Assembly: GCF_001677475.2 (NCBI RefSeq)
Contig: NZ_CP015229.1
Strand: one strand, 5' to 3'
DNA from: Escherichia coli
Lineage (GTDB): Bacteria > Pseudomonadota > Gammaproteobacteria > Enterobacterales > Enterobacteriaceae
Length of the DNA: 64,000 nucleotides
The translations under genes were made by a program, and so were the position numbers. Below are positions 39,983 to 44,571 of the stretch, piece after piece. The notes under the pieces are model-generated. The model searched no databases. It saw only the letters and a program-made list of their open reading frames with translations, and had not been told where the DNA came from. Positions within the stretch are counted from its first letter, which is position 1, and each line of letters opens with the position of its first letter.

Positions 39983-41278
<1,296 letters not shown>

Positions 41279-41424
41279 AACTATCAGCCGGGTCATTATC
41301 GCCTGGCTGATTTTTAGCTCACTGTAAATTATCTCATTTATTACATACATTAGCTTACAATCGCTTTAAATATGACAGCATAACCTTTACACAATTTAGT
41401 TCCAGAAAACAATCATTCGGAAAA

Positions 41425-42900
41425 ATGATTCGGTCAACACGTGTTTCCCTAGGGTTATTCTTTAAATATTTTTTATCGTTAACGAAAATTGATCCTGGTC
41501 AAAACTATATATCTCTGCCATCAATAAAATCCAGCACTCACATTGCTCTCCTTTTTATGGTTTCTATGGGTACACAAAAATTAAAAGCTCAAGGCTTTTT
41601 TATTTTCAGTTTATTGCTGACGTTAATTTTATTTTGCATTACTACCTTATATAACGAAAACACGAATGTAAAACTCATCCCACAGATGAATTACCTGATG
41701 GTTGTTGTGGCTTTGTTTTTCCTTAACGCCGTCATTTTTCTTTTCATGTTAATGAAATATTTCACTAACAAACAAATTTTACCAACACTCATTTTAAGCC
41801 TTGCATTTTTAAGTGGCCTTATCTATTTAGTTGAAACCATTGTAATTATCCATAAACCAATCAACGGCAGTACACTGATCCAGACAAAGTCGAATGATGT
41901 TTCTATTTTCTATATTTTCCGCCAACTCAGTTTTATTTGTTTAACCTCGCTGGCGCTCTTTTGTTATGGAAAAGACAACATCTTTGAAAACAATAAGAAA
42001 AAAACTGGCATTCTGTTACTGGCGCTGATTCCTTTTTTAGTTTTTCCCCTTCTGGCACACAATCTGAGCAGTTATAACGCTGACTATTCTTTGTATGTCG
42101 TCGATTACTGTCCGGACAACCATACTGCGACCTGGGGAATCAACTATACAAAAATATTGGTTTGTTTGTGGGCATTTTTACTGTTCTTTATTATCATGCG
42201 TACACGATTAGCCAGCGAACTATGGCCGTTAATAGCATTATTATGTCTGGCATCGCTATGCTGCAACTTACTTCTACTGACTCTGGATGAGTATAATTAC
42301 ACCATCTGGTATATCAGTCGTGGGATTGAAGTTTCCAGTAAACTGTTTGTTGTGTCTTTTCTGATTTATAACATTTTTCAGGAACTGCAACTCTCCAGCA
42401 AACTGGCAGTTCATGATGTGCTGACCAATATTTATAATCGGCGCTACTTTTTCAACAGCGTAGAGTCATTATTGTCGCGACCTGTTGTTAAGGACTTCTG
42501 TGTCATGCTGGTTGATATTAATCAGTTCAAACGCATCAATGCCCAATGGGGACATCGTGTGGGTGATAAAGTGCTGGTTTCAATTGTCGATATTATCCAG
42601 CAAAGCATCCGCCCCGATGATATTTTAGCGCGACTGGAGGGTGAGGTGTTTGGCTTGCTGTTTACCGAACTCAATAGTGCCCAGGCAAAAATCATTGCAG
42701 AACGTATGCGTAAAAATGTCGAACTCCTGACCGGCTTTAGTAACAGATATGATGTTCCTGAACAAATGACCATCAGTATTGGCACGGTTTTTTCAACGGG
42801 TGACACGCGTAATATCTCGCTTGTCATGACGGAAGCAGATAAAGCCTTACGCGAAGCGAAAAGCGAGGGGGGCAACAAAGTGATTATTCATCATATTTAA
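41425..42900 (+). CDS. dgcJ: membrane-anchored diguanylate cyclase (GGDEF-type, GGEVF in active-site position)
   Basis: ORF track 491 aa; very AT-rich N-terminal membrane domain, C-terminal GGDEF-like domain; K-12 yeaI. Confidence 0.8.
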   Translation: MIRSTRVSLGLFFKYFLSLTKIDPGQNYISLPSIKSSTHIALLFMVSMGTQKLKAQGFFIFSLLLTLILFCITTLYNENTNVKLIPQMNYLMVVVALFFLNAVIFLFMLMKYFTNKQILPTLILSLAFLSGLIYLVETIVIIHKPINGSTLIQTKSNDVSIFYIFRQLSFICLTSLALFCYGKDNIFENNKKKTGILLLALIPFLVFPLLAHNLSSYNADYSLYVVDYCPDNHTATWGINYTKILVCLWAFLLFFIIMRTRLASELWPLIALLCLASLCCNLLLLTLDEYNYTIWYISRGIEVSSKLFVVSFLIYNIFQELQLSSKLAVHDVLTNIYNRRYFFNSVESLLSRPVVKDFCVMLVDINQFKRINAQWGHRVGDKVLVSIVDIIQQSIRPDDILARLEGEVFGLLFTELNSAQAKIIAERMRKNVELLTGFSNRYDVPEQMTISIGTVFSTGDTRNISLVMTEADKALREAKSEGGNKVIIHHI

Positions 42901-43080
42901 GTGCAAAAATATTCAGAGCCATGCTTTTTGCGTGGCTTTTGCATACAATTTATTACTATTACCCCTAAATTTCCCCTCCCCAGCGGCGCAGAGATGAGTA
43001 TAATTAGCGCCCCTGTGCCAGGCCGCAATCGAACTTTATCTGGTTTTCTCGTTTCACTAACCGAAGGAGTGCCATTTATC

Positions 43081-44571
43081 ATGAAATTGCACCATAGAAT
43101 GCTCCGGCATTTTATCGCCGCAAGTGTCATTGTGCTGACATCTTCCTTCCTTATTTTTGAACTTGTCGCCAGCGACAGAGCAATGAGTGCTTATCTGCGC
43201 TATATCGTGCAGAGAGCAGACTCCTCCTTTCTTTATGATAAGTATCAGAATCAGAGTATTGCCGCGCATGTGATGCGCGCTCTCGCTGCTGAGCAGTCGG
43301 AAGTGTCGCCAGAACAGCGGCGCGCCATCTGCGAGGCTTTTGAGTCTGCCAATAATACCCATGGCTTAAACCTGACTGCCCATAAATACCCGGGCTTACG
43401 CGGCACACTACAAACCGCATCCACTGACTGCGACACAATTGTGGAAGCTGCAGCACTATTACCCGCTTTTGATCAGGCAGTGGAAGGCAACCGCCACCAG
43501 GATGATTACGGTTCAGGTCTTGGGATGGCCGAAGAGAAATTTCACTATTATCTCGATCTCAATGACCGCTATGTCTATTTTTATGAGCCGGTTAATGTTG
43601 AATACTTTGCGATGAATAACTGGTCCTTCCTGCAGTCAGGAAGTATTGGCATCGATCGCAAAGATATTGAAAAGGTATTTACCGGGCGTACCGTATTATC
43701 GAGCATTTACCAGGATCAGCGTACTAAACAGAACGTGATGAGTTTGCTGACGCCGGTATATGTCGCAGGGCAGCTAAAAGGGATTGTGCTGCTGGATATT
43801 AACAAAAACAATTTGCGGAATATCTTTTACACTCATGACCGCCCTCTCCTCTGGCGTTTTCTCAATGTCACGCTAACTGATACCGATTCGGGGCGCGACA
43901 TTATCATCAACCAGAGCGAAGATAATCTGTTCCAGTATGTCAGTTACGTCCATGACTTACCGGGCGGCATTCGTGTCTCGTTATCCATTGATATTCTTTA
44001 CTTTATCACGTCTTCGTGGAAAAGCGTTCTGTTCTGGATTTTGACGGCGTTAATTTTGCTGAATATGGTCCGGATGCACTTCCGTTTATACCAAAATGTG
44101 TCGCGAGAAAATATTAGTGATGCGATGACTGGACTGTATAATCGCAAAATTTTAACCCCTGAACTGGAACAGCGGTTGCAGAAACTGGTGCAATCCGGTT
44201 CTTCGGTGATGTTTATTGCTATTGACATGGACAAGTTAAAGCAAATAAATGACACCCTCGGTCATCAGGAGGGGGATTTAGCGATTACGTTATTAGCTCA
44301 GGCGATTAAACAGTCGATTCGTAAAAGTGATTATGCCATCCGACTCGGTGGCGATGAATTCTGCATCATCCTTGTCGATTCGACGCCGCAAATTGCAGCA
44401 CAACTGCCTGAACGTATCGAAAAACGTCTGCAACATATCGCGCCGCAGAAAGAGATCGGCTTCTCTTCCGGTATTTACGCGATGAAAGAAAACGATACGT
44501 TACATGATGCGTATAAAGCTTCCGATGAGCGTTTATATGTCAATAAGCAGAACAAAAACAGCCGTTCATGA
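43081..44571 (+). CDS. dgcK: diguanylate cyclase with N-terminal sensor domain (GGDEF)
   Basis: Internal ATG at 43081 (MKLHHRMLRHF...) within ORF 42901-44571; RLGGDEF motif; K-12 yeaJ. Confidence 0.8.
   Translation: MKLHHRMLRHFIAASVIVLTSSFLIFELVASDRAMSAYLRYIVQRADSSFLYDKYQNQSIAAHVMRALAAEQSEVSPEQRRAICEAFESANNTHGLNLTAHKYPGLRGTLQTASTDCDTIVEAAALLPAFDQAVEGNRHQDDYGSGLGMAEEKFHYYLDLNDRYVYFYEPVNVEYFAMNNWSFLQSGSIGIDRKDIEKVFTGRTVLSSIYQDQRTKQNVMSLLTPVYVAGQLKGIVLLDINKNNLRNIFYTHDRPLLWRFLNVTLTDTDSGRDIIINQSEDNLFQYVSYVHDLPGGIRVSLSIDILYFITSSWKSVLFWILTALILLNMVRMHFRLYQNVSRENISDAMTGLYNRKILTPELEQRLQKLVQSGSSVMFIAIDMDKLKQINDTLGHQEGDLAITLLAQAIKQSIRKSDYAIRLGGDEFCIILVDSTPQIAAQLPERIEKRLQHIAPQKEIGFSSGIYAMKENDTLHDAYKASDERLYVNKQNKNSRS

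Follow-up and report, generated by a model that had tools for sequence, protein, structure and literature searches.

The AT-rich tract around Escherichia coli cdgI: a likely foreign, H-NS-coated gene for a degenerate diguanylate cyclase with a probably misannotated 5′ end

The window analyzed here is a 64,000-nt stretch of E. coli DNA (contig NZ_CP015229.1) in which all coordinates count from the first letter. At positions 41425-42900 on the plus strand it contains an open reading frame of 491 codons, running from ATG to stop, that is cdgI (yeaI, b1785), with yeaH on its 5′ side and dgcJ (yeaJ) as its 3′ neighbor. A match is present in 5424 of 5426 complete E. coli genomes, where the feature is annotated as cdgI. 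The original prediction had labeled this reading frame dgcJ, a name that belongs to the downstream neighbor, and had named dgcK as a flanking gene, which the annotation of the locus does not contain. Gene identity, and likewise the composition, synteny, conservation and protein-level selection described below, were computed from the sequence, and the features of the locus are collected in Table 1.

Table 1. Features of the cdgI locus (window coordinates)
Feature	Position	Strand	Details
Terminator-like hairpin and T-run	41283..41311	+	11-pair stem with 6 G-C pairs, then TTTTAGCTCA
TACA-N6-TACA, form of RstA box	41346..41359	+	sequence; box form TACANNNNNNTACA (PMC6824119)
Weak sigma70-like promoter candidate TTTACA-16-AACAAT, 5′ of annotated ATG	41386..41413	+	9/12 matches
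cdgI codons 1-47 as annotated; probable non-coding promoter and 5′ leader	41425..41565	+	conservation, codon-position variation
AT run TTATTCTTTAAATATTTTTTATCGTT	41455..41480	+	about -82 to -57 of predicted FNR-dependent promoter
FNR box TTGATCCTGGTCAA	41489..41502	+	9/10 matches to TTGAT-N4-ATCAA
Putative -10 hexamer TAAAAT	41525..41530	+	TAGAAT in E. albertii and Citrobacter
Probable cdgI coding sequence from conserved start (annotated Met48), 444 aa and stop	41566..42900	+	ortholog alignment
MASE4 integral-membrane sensor domain, aa 88-319	41686..42381	+	Pfam PF17158, E = 1.6e-48
Perfect TATAAT in coding sequence	42292..42297	+	codons of conserved DEYNY motif; possible intragenic promoter
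GGDEF domain, aa 328-485	42406..42879	+	Pfam PF00990, E = 9.2e-45
RxxD I-site RPDD, aa 396-399	42610..42621	+	five residues (ILARL) before EGEVF
Degenerate A-site EGEVF, aa 405-409, for GG[D/E]EF	42637..42651	+	translation, alignment

The first 600 nt of the cdgI reading frame have a GC content of 0.330 (33.0%) relative to a mean of 50.6% for the window (z = -3.8), and only 0.4% of the 600-nt intervals in the 64-kb stretch are equally low. This bears out the marked AT-richness described by the original prediction, which also quoted an AT run that occurs once and regarded the flanking genes as less AT-rich, as indeed they are (GC 0.497 for yeaH and 0.458 for dgcJ). What does not hold is the extent given to this segment. 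Specifically, the GC minima at window sizes of 300, 600 and 1000 nt all fall at about 41200-41600 in a scan of the 64 kb, and the tract in which 300-nt GC stays below 0.40 covers 41076-42542, from the 3′ end of yeaH through the intergenic region to near the MASE4/GGDEF boundary. Moreover, about 141 of the 600 nt ascribed to the gene are probably non-coding, as described below. The gene as a whole has a GC content of 0.383 and a GC3 of 0.42, where about 0.55 is expected, and both values are the lowest among the 47 ORFs of the window; the membrane and GGDEF halves have GC3 values of 0.41 and 0.47, respectively, relative to 0.52-0.64 in other genes, among them five others for hydrophobic or membrane proteins.

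A low GC content could be a mere codon effect of a hydrophobic membrane domain rich in Phe, Ile, Leu, Asn, Lys and Tyr, with no evolutionary or regulatory meaning. Indeed, the amino acid sequence at normal local codon usage gives an expected GC of 0.401 for the first 600 nt, which means that ~60% of the deficit is reproduced by amino acid composition and ~40% is synonymous, and a chromosomal homolog with host-level GC3 (0.58, in a host of ~54% GC) still has a GC of 0.44 in its membrane half vs 0.52 in its GGDEF half. However, the five other hydrophobic or membrane-protein genes of the window have GC contents of 0.45-0.56 and GC3 values of 0.51-0.64, with FYMINK fractions of 0.17-0.35 and GARP fractions of 0.24-0.34 (0.38 and 0.12, respectively, for Met48 to residue 319 of CdgI). 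The low GC3 also extends through the soluble GGDEF half of cdgI, and the intergenic region and leader are just as AT-rich (0.336). On the GC3 values we rejected the membrane domain as the sole explanation, which is largely refuted and which we consider improbable. The extreme AT-richness of the cdgI 5′ end would instead be the sum of three additive causes, namely a synonymous-site GC that is low along the entire gene, a MASE4 membrane domain with the F/Y/M/I/N/K-rich amino acid composition typical of AT-rich genomes, and a first 141 annotated nt that would constitute a non-coding promoter and leader carrying a class II-type FNR site and a -10 hexamer.

The annotated 141-nt extension is probably not coding, with the true start lying downstream, because it contains in-frame stops and indels in relatives and exhibits flat variation across codon positions. 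Specifically, only E. coli proper and E. whittamii have an uninterrupted frame through the extension; of the six other relatives examined, five carry in-frame stops at 14-44 codons 5′ of the conserved ATG, and there are also 1-nt indels. Variable sites are distributed 10/10/9 over the three codon positions in the extension vs 33/11/79 downstream. Orthologs of cdgI are annotated at 445-448 aa, and Met48 is the sole start codon that is kept in all of them, although within Escherichia Met45 (41557) is an alternative. Met48 is not preceded by an evident Shine-Dalgarno sequence. If the shorter reading frame is right, then a construct that starts at Met48 would be the corrected one for expression, topology and interaction work. 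The true start codon is one of three elements that we infer, the others being the transcription start and the causal chain linking AT-richness, H-NS and FNR that are both taken up below.

Several candidate promoter elements are located within and around this extension. The terminator-like hairpin lies directly 3′ of the yeaH stop codon, where it separates yeaGH from cdgI, and its stem is conserved in the alignment. The 64 kb contain no match other than this FNR box, which is conserved in 10 of 10 orthologous loci, with a perfect match in both Citrobacter loci. The same 14-mer appears in published tables among predicted FNR sites, where it is placed ‘Within yeaI’ and has a ChIP-seq peak (PMC3688515 Tables S5, S6). 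The center of this box (41495.5) is spaced from the TAAAAT hexamer exactly as in a class II promoter, which would place a transcription start near 41537 and the center of the FNR box at -41.5. K-12 ChIP positions were converted to the window via the K-12 locus, which is ~98% identical to it, and this puts the anaerobic sigma70 ChIP-seq peak of position 1868507 at about 41523 (PMC3688515 Table S1). Further upstream, a published sigma70 ChIP position (1868329) converts to about 41345 and an SrsR gSELEX position (1868366) to about 41382. RstA binds a yeaI promoter fragment in gel-shift assays (PMC6824119), and the RstA-type box in Table 1 may be the exact site that it contacts. Inside the coding sequence, the perfect TATAAT sits between an AppY ChIP summit that converts to about 42269 (PMC10057817) and an anaerobic sigma70 peak ‘within yeaI’ at about 42313, where occupancy rises from 15.6 to 407.9 (PMC3688515 tables). 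An Rfam scan of 40800-43300 at E values up to 1 gave no match. CdgI is among the few E. coli GGDEF/EAL-domain proteins that still have no function or known inducing condition, and if a single promoter upstream of a shorter reading frame unites the FNR box, the sigma70 peak and the conserved start, then anaerobiosis together with relief from H-NS would be a concrete candidate for such a condition.

The encoded protein has at least seven hydrophobic 19-residue segments between residues 57 and 287, followed by the GGDEF domain. The MASE4 match scores 165.7 bits against a cut-off of 28.4 and spans profile positions 5-237 of 239, and the GGDEF domain matches 43 GGDEF sequences of solved structure, among them PleD, WspR and DosC. 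Among the NCBIfam models there is no equivalog-level model for CdgI, with the generic GGDEF domain alone scoring above its cut-off. The I-site residues R396 and D399 are invariant in 16 of 16 aligned homologs. The A-site had been read as GGEVF in the original prediction; the codons GAG GGT GAG GTG TTT encode EGEVF, in the context L-E-G-E-V-F, as also appears in the published residue table for YeaI (KNAHDR-EGEVF; PMC3484386). Thus the letters were misread, but the departure from GG[D/E]EF is real, and the doubt that was expressed over catalysis is both justified and already published in the form of a degenerate A-site, an intact I-site and a purified domain that binds c-di-GMP (PMC5635695). In alignment, EGEVF stands opposite GGEEF in both the solved cyclases and the Citrobacter orthologs. 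CdgI is also changed at three more conserved positions (IND to INA, LYEAK to LREAK and GRN to GGN) that are kept in solved cyclases, in the Citrobacter orthologs and in active relatives. In PleD structures, the residues at these positions that contact substrate or metal are Asp (in IND), Tyr (in LYEAK) and Arg (in GRN).

There is published evidence that could be taken to mean that CdgI retains diguanylate cyclase activity despite EGEVF. The biofilm defect of a CFT073 yeaI mutant in no-salt LB is complemented by the cyclase WspR, and Spurbeck et al. list YeaI, citing earlier work, among ‘verified’ cyclase activities (PMC3484386); YeaI also raises c-di-GMP in vivo according to Sanchez-Torres 2011, as cited in PMC6824119. 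However, WspR did not complement the same mutant in glycerol medium (PMC3484386), and later papers call CdgI degenerate or non-functional (PMC5635695, PMC10459773). The first Gly and fourth Glu of GG[D/E]EF are replaced, the three additional substitutions described above are present, and the A-site residues drift within the Escherichia clade (EGEVF, EGEEF, EGNVF or EGKRF), with GGEEF in the Citrobacter-type orthologs. We therefore regard retained cyclase activity as very unlikely. CdgI would instead be a MASE4-GGDEF protein of the inner membrane in which the cyclase active site is lost but the RxxD I-site for c-di-GMP binding is kept. The purified GGDEF domain is reported, with reference to Fig. 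S4 of Sarenko 2017 (PMC5635695), to bind c-di-GMP, and two-hybrid data led to the proposal that CdgI acts by heteromeric contact with other GGDEF domains (PMC5635695).

The distribution of cdgI is narrow. Among 80 Enterobacteriaceae yeaH loci, only the five from Escherichia have cdgI between yeaH and dgcJ, and the same placement is observed in separately fetched loci, one of which matches Citrobacter sp. Awk 4. At the yeaH locus the gene is absent from all other Citrobacter loci and from all other genera sampled, most of which have yeaH followed by yeaK or yeaL. We rejected the notion that cdgI is unique to Escherichia, because syntenic orthologs with GGEEF exist at 57-61% identity, including one that carries the name Citrobacter sp. 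Awk 4. Also rejected was a divergent cdgI allele in ‘E. coli E69’ (MASE4 85% identical, YeaH 100% identical), because the flanking genes, too, reach no more than 91-95% DNA identity, which indicates a different Escherichia lineage. Homologs in mobile contexts adjoin phage or plasmid-type genes and have a GC content of 0.29-0.30 in both halves, an example being a 38%-identical MASE4-GGDEF homolog of 29% GC that adjoins phage tail genes.

The original prediction had suggested a foreign origin for the sensor/membrane module. Near the domain boundary of cdgI the GC content rises stepwise, from ~0.35 for the membrane half to 0.45 for the GGDEF half, as would be expected if only a low-GC N-terminal MASE4 cassette were foreign and had been joined to a resident GGDEF domain. 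In contrast, GC3 is nearly the same in the two halves across the orthologs (0.41-0.46 in the MASE4 half vs 0.38-0.48 in the GGDEF half), and the MASE4 part has a GC of 0.35-0.38 in all orthologs and in the paralog dgcT. Homologs down to 37% identity, including DgcT and the mobile-context copies that are ~30% GC throughout, all share the full, collinear two-domain architecture, and the GGDEF domains of CdgI and its neighbor DgcJ share only 28-30% identity. The two halves are also similarly diverged from the Citrobacter orthologs (dN of 0.23-0.28 vs 0.32-0.33). On the GC3 values we rejected a module swap, which is extremely unlikely. Thus, foreign origin is supported for the whole MASE4-GGDEF gene and not for the sensor module alone. 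The cdgI family would travel on phages and plasmids as ~30% GC DNA, and cdgI would have entered the Escherichia/Citrobacter lineage by insertion between yeaH and dgcJ, with only partial amelioration since. Both halves are under strong purifying selection, with dN/dS of ~0.1 (0.07-0.10).

Occupancy by H-NS, FNR and sigma70, as well as c-di-GMP binding, absent expression and overexpression toxicity, are taken from published data. The involvement of H-NS that the original prediction had raised is supported by K-12 ChIP, where an extended H-NS region of 2820 bp (1867616-1870436) converts to approximately 40632-43452 of the window (Myers 2013, PMC3688515 Table S3), and yeaI is scored as H-NS-bound in all data sets compared by Panyukov & Ozoline 2013 (PMC3661553 Table 1). 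The FNR site itself lies inside this region and is marked ‘None’ for nucleoid-protein signal (PMC3688515 Table S6). The FNR ChIP signal at yeaI increases from 1.57 to 2.55 in an hns stpA double mutant (PMC3688515 Table S7). In anaerobic glucose minimal medium yeaI expression shows no FNR-dependent change (PMC3688515 Table S9), and yeaI is not listed among the genes that acquire an O2 response in the hns stpA mutant (PMC3688515 Table S11); in these data neither silencing nor FNR activation of yeaI is evident at the transcript level. According to the mechanism that we propose, an extended H-NS filament would coat the AT-rich tract and keep cdgI essentially silent in laboratory culture, and FNR, and probably also AppY, RstA and SrsR, would bind the tract as candidate releasers under anaerobic or stress conditions. 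The causal chain would run from AT-richness to H-NS silencing and on to FNR counter-silencing.

It is also conceivable that the low GC is not a fading relic of transfer and is instead kept by selection as an H-NS platform, or ‘promoter island’, that holds off a toxic protein until counter-silencers such as FNR or AppY come into play. GC3 is 0.37-0.46 in all orthologs from E. coli to Citrobacter even though dS between the Escherichia and Citrobacter genes is saturated, relative to 0.47-0.58 for the flanking yeaH. CdgI is toxic when overproduced and is below detection in culture (PMC5635695), and both the extended H-NS region and a published ‘promoter island’ map onto the tract. On the other hand, the homolog in the ~54% GC host has a GC3 of 0.58, and therefore the family tolerates GC-rich codons. 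The H-NS nucleation motif TCGWTWAATT, allowing up to one mismatch, has no match in 41000-43000 (16 in the window vs 18.7 expected), and a two-hexamer scan of 40800-43200 gave 6 promoter-like sites vs 6.5 ± 2.5 in dinucleotide-preserving shuffles and thus no excess, although the promoter-island definition of Panyukov & Ozoline uses a different algorithm. No record of an hns-dependent change in yeaI expression was found in the published data examined. Selection for such a platform is in our view rather unlikely. We also observe that the retention of low GC3 in orthologs despite saturated synonymous sites is poorly explained by simple slow amelioration.

Taken together, we consider it likely that cdgI is a foreign, partly ameliorated and H-NS-coated gene that encodes a degenerate cyclase and is misannotated at its 5′ end. 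Nearly all of this picture is already published, and the reinterpretation of the start codon and promoter alone may be new. A bolder reading, in which the untranslated first 47 codons are a conserved class II FNR promoter within an H-NS filament, the product is an anaerobically poised c-di-GMP receptor and the low GC is selected as a silencing platform for a toxic protein, is a possibility that we offer with some doubt. If true, an anaerobically poised, H-NS-gated cdgI would explain the absence of expression in aerated cultures. The locus also illustrates how large a share of the apparent AT-richness of a gene may be due to each of three sources, namely amino acid usage, synonymous sites and misannotated non-coding DNA.

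Several known systems resemble cdgI in part. YcdT, DgcX and YeaI have been grouped as one family in the literature (PMC10459773), and DgcT (YcdT) and DgcX of E. coli have the same collinear two-domain MASE4-GGDEF layout, with DgcT being 37% identical to CdgI. The dgcT gene is also similar in composition, with a GC of 0.386 overall, 0.347 in its N-terminal part and 0.462 in its C-terminal part. However, DgcT and DgcX are active cyclases with GGEEF, IND, YEAK and GRN where CdgI has EGEVF, INA, REAK and GGN. PelD and PopA are degenerate GGDEF proteins that function as c-di-GMP receptors via an RxxD I-site. CdgI is like receptors of this type in that the A-site is lost and RxxD is kept, with published c-di-GMP binding by the purified domain (PMC5635695) and strong purifying selection on the protein, but it is unlike them in that its proposed mode is heteromeric contact with other GGDEF domains and not a defined effector pathway. 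With regard to regulation, yeaI is like hlyE, an H-NS-masked FNR target (category 7 of Myers et al. 2013), in having an FNR site at an activating position in AT-rich, H-NS-bound and horizontally acquired DNA, and like such targets it has higher FNR occupancy in the absence of H-NS and StpA. In contrast to the hlyE-type targets, FNR is already bound at yeaI in wild type, and no change in yeaI expression that depends on O2 or FNR is on record, the hns stpA strain included. Finally, yeaI is one of the 78 ‘promoter islands’ of Panyukov & Ozoline 2013, a 304-bp segment that converts to approximately 41550-41853 and that is scored as associated with predicted foreign genes (PMC3661553). By the simple two-hexamer scan, the promoter-like sites of cdgI are no denser than in shuffled sequence, and one specific, conserved FNR-type promoter is predicted to lie just 5′ of the yeaI island.

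The AT-rich ORF that the original prediction had named dgcJ is cdgI, both by genome annotation and by gene order. Specifically, the order in ST2747 and in K-12 MG1655 is yeaG, yeaH, cdgI (b1785, formerly yeaI), dgcJ (b1786, formerly yeaJ) and yeaK, so the names first given were wrong and the neighbor taken for 'dgcK' is dgcJ. The cdgI region (41279-42900) has a megablast match in 5424 of 5426 complete E. coli genomes at 95-99% identity, and the annotation beneath this match is cdgI. Overall, the AT-richness is confirmed, the gene names and the reading of the motif were in error, and the interpretation is right in outline with two changes needed. One is that foreign origin applies to the whole gene, and the other is that the AT-rich '5′ coding region' appears in part to be a promoter. 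The identity of cdgI, its degeneracy and its binding by H-NS and FNR are already in the literature.

Features of cdgI and its upstream region
Feature	Position	Strand	Basis or remark
ATG-to-stop ORF (cdgI), 491 codons	41425-42900	+	ORF reading
MASE4 membrane domain of CdgI	aa 88-319		Pfam, E = 1.6e-48
GGDEF domain of CdgI, C-terminal to MASE4	aa 328-485		Pfam, E = 9.2e-45
RstA-box form TACA-N6-TACA	41346-41359		sequence match, upstream of annotated ATG
Sigma70-like TTTACA-16-AACAAT	41386-41413		sequence match, upstream of annotated ATG
AT run quoted in the original prediction	41455-41480		sequence search
FNR box TTGATCCTGGTCAA	41489-41502		alignment; 9/10 to TTGAT-N4-ATCAA
Candidate -10 hexamer TAAAAT (or TAGAAT)	41525-41530		conserved in alignment
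Perfect TATAAT inside cdgI	42292-42297 (context 42269-42313)		within codons of conserved DEYNY motif

Windowed GC analysis bears out the extreme AT-richness of the first 600 nt of cdgI, which have a GC content of 0.330, where the window as a whole averages 0.506 (z = -3.8). At each scan size (300, 600 and 1000 nt) the GC minimum of the 64 kb falls at ~41200-41600, and the contiguous low-GC tract extends from 41076 to 42542. With codon usage taken from the other 46 long ORFs in the window, the amino acids of the first 200 codons predict a GC content of 0.401. The encoded amino acids thus account for roughly 60% of the GC deficit (0.506 to 0.401), and synonymous choice for roughly 40% (0.401 to 0.330); GC3 of these codons is 0.375 versus 0.554 expected. 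Membrane-protein status does not account for the low GC, because the window has five further genes for hydrophobic or membrane proteins, with a GC of 0.45-0.56 and a GC3 of 0.51-0.64. FYMINK and GARP fractions are 0.17-0.35 and 0.24-0.34 in these five, and 0.38 and 0.12 in the membrane half of CdgI (Met48-aa319). GC3 is nearly equal in the membrane and GGDEF halves of cdgI (0.41 vs 0.47; 0.37-0.46 vs 0.38-0.48 across orthologues), and therefore the GC step at the domain boundary is due to the first and second codon positions. The synonymous signature of atypical origin thus extends over the entire gene. Elsewhere in the window, dgcJ (43081-44571) is also under the window GC at 0.458, and the second most AT-rich gene is ynjI (DUF1266; 23884-24924, minus strand; GC 0.417, GC3 0.43). 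The latter varies within the species, with at least 80% of the surrounding 1.5-kb query present in 3457 of 5426 complete E. coli genomes and many E. coli matches at just 90-95% identity.

Homologues are collinear with CdgI over its full length down to 37% identity. Together with the GC3 of both halves, this supports the view that the MASE4-GGDEF gene is foreign as a whole; separate acquisition of the sensor/membrane module, the form in which foreign origin had been proposed, finds no support. Horizontal acquisition of yeaI had already been noted in published surveys (PMC3661553, Table 1). Distant homologues include two with an intact GGEEF, one beside phage tail genes in E. coli (L090:8001-9332; GC 0.29, GC3 0.26) and one beside ParM-/ParE-type genes (L089:8001-9332; 0.30, 0.27), and also a chromosomal one in a locus of 54% GC (L088:8001-9347; 0.47, 0.58; membrane half 0.44 GC vs GGDEF half 0.52). 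With cdgI and its paralogue dgcT (GC 0.386, GC3 0.41) in between, these form an apparent amelioration series.

When the DNA downstream of yeaH was inspected in 80 loci (one genome per species), a MASE4-GGDEF gene was present between yeaH and dgcJ in 5/5 Escherichia loci (three labelled E. coli, E. albertii and E. whittamii, one Escherichia sp. E1V33 and one divergent and E. coli-labelled). None of the Citrobacter loci of this set had cdgI, as dgcJ was either adjacent to yeaH or separated from it by 1-2 kb of unrelated DNA, and in most other genera yeaH is followed by yeaK or yeaL. In a protein search, the names attached to the nearest non-Escherichia homologues, at 57-61% identity, were Citrobacter sp. 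Awk 4 and Citrobacter sp. NCU1, and the loci of the homologous proteins P0020 and P0024 (Citrobacter sp. Awk 4) carry the gene at the same syntenic position. These syntenic homologues indicate that the insertion is patchy and either old or exchanged between Escherichia and Citrobacter. Several Citrobacter loci and one Raoultella-labelled locus (L011, L013, L014, L017, L018 and L020) hold 1.0-2.1 kb of unrelated DNA at the exact cdgI position, and the yeaH-dgcJ interval is suggested to be an insertion hot spot. In addition, many Enterobacteriaceae, such as Enterobacter, have no dgcJ between yeaH and yeaK; loci of Citrobacter, Kluyvera and the Klebsiella oxytoca group do carry it, with 39-65% identity. 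Like cdgI, dgcJ has the look of a variable GGDEF gene at this site.

The annotated 5′ end of cdgI is probably non-coding. In an alignment of ten loci from the yeaH stop into cdgI, the sole start codon common to all is annotated Met48 (ATG at 41566). The long upstream extension is open solely in E. coli proper and E. whittamii (TTG start there). There are 1-nt indels and, 14-44 codons 5′ of the Met48 ATG, in-frame stops in E. albertii, SCPM-O-B-8794, E69, the metagenomic relative L087 and Citrobacter. Variable sites by codon position among four collinear Escherichia sequences number 10/10/9 in the 141-nt extension and 33/11/79 in the next 600 nt, and the orthologues are annotated at 445-448 aa. 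The extension, which contains the quoted AT run and makes up about a quarter of the 'first 600 nt', thus behaves as non-coding.

The extension contains two conserved islands in otherwise divergent sequence. Its FNR box is the sole such match in the window and is perfect in both Citrobacter loci. The box centre (41495.5) is 29.5 nt upstream of the TAAAAT hexamer, which places it at -41.5 from a predicted start near 41537, a position associated in the literature with FNR activation. By inference, cdgI transcription would start near 41537 and may be activated by FNR. The box was predicted from sequence and only afterwards met in Myers et al. 2013 (PMC3688515). The supplementary tables of that study give the identical 14-mer at K-12 position 1868473, 'Within yeaI', along with an FNR ChIP-seq peak at 1868480 (Tables S5, S6), an anaerobic sigma70 peak at 1868507, about window 41523 (Table S1), and an FNR ChIP-chip signal at yeaI that rises from 1.57 to 2.55 in an hns stpA mutant (Table S7). 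We predict that this site 'within yeaI' is part of a phylogenetically conserved FNR promoter with correct spacing that precedes the real start codon, a modest annotation-level insight for which no published statement was found in the searchable literature.

The suggested H-NS involvement also agrees with published data. The anaerobic extended H-NS region 1867616-1870436 (2820 bp; PMC3688515) corresponds to about 40632-43452 in the window and spans the low-GC tract completely, yet the FNR site is marked free of nucleoid-protein signal (Table S6). The 5′ end of dgcJ is inside this region as well. A 304-bp 'promoter island' inside yeaI (about window 41550-41853) was H-NS-bound in all compared data sets (Panyukov & Ozoline, PMC3661553). 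A motif scan of the low-GC tract found no H-NS nucleation motif, and promoter-like sites at cdgI were in no excess over shuffled sequence. Other published regulatory evidence includes RstA gel-shifts of a yeaI promoter fragment, an SrsR gSELEX peak in the yeaH-cdgI spacer, an AppY ChIP-seq peak at the locus with RNA up 34-fold upon AppY overproduction, and CsrA repression, as cited in PMC5635695. The RstA-box and sigma70-like elements may mark a second, upstream cdgI promoter, and the internal TATAAT may be an intragenic promoter. The former two lie close to the SrsR peak and to a sigma70 ChIP position from the literature. The TATAAT is located between the AppY summit (~42269) and a sigma70 peak 'within yeaI' (~42313) with an occupancy that goes from 15.6 to 407.9 anaerobically. 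No CdgI can be detected in laboratory cultures, and its overexpression is toxic (PMC5635695).

Regarding catalysis, the motif had been misread as GGEVF; the codons at 42637-42651 (GAG GGT GAG GTG TTT) encode EGEVF, with Leu just before. Doubt about activity was nevertheless justified, as alignment with solved cyclases and GGEEF-bearing Citrobacter orthologues shows EGEVF, INA, LREAK and GGN in CdgI where active relatives have GGEEF, IND, LYEAK and GRN, respectively. The A-site has drifted within the Escherichia clade (EGEVF, EGEEF, EGNVF, EGKRF), and the RxxD I-site (RPDD, aa 396-399), five residues 5′ of the A-site, is invariant in 16/16 aligned homologues. A dN/dS of 0.07-0.10 in both cdgI halves (Escherichia lineages) argues that CdgI is maintained by selection, but not as a diguanylate cyclase. 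Older in vivo claims of cyclase activity are relayed by citing papers (PMC3484386, PMC6824119), and a later paper calls CdgI 'catalytically non-functional' (PMC10459773). Strong two-hybrid contacts with other GGDEF domains have been reported (PMC5635695), and our selection and A-site results agree with the degenerate A-site, intact I-site and c-di-GMP binding by the purified domain described in that same study.
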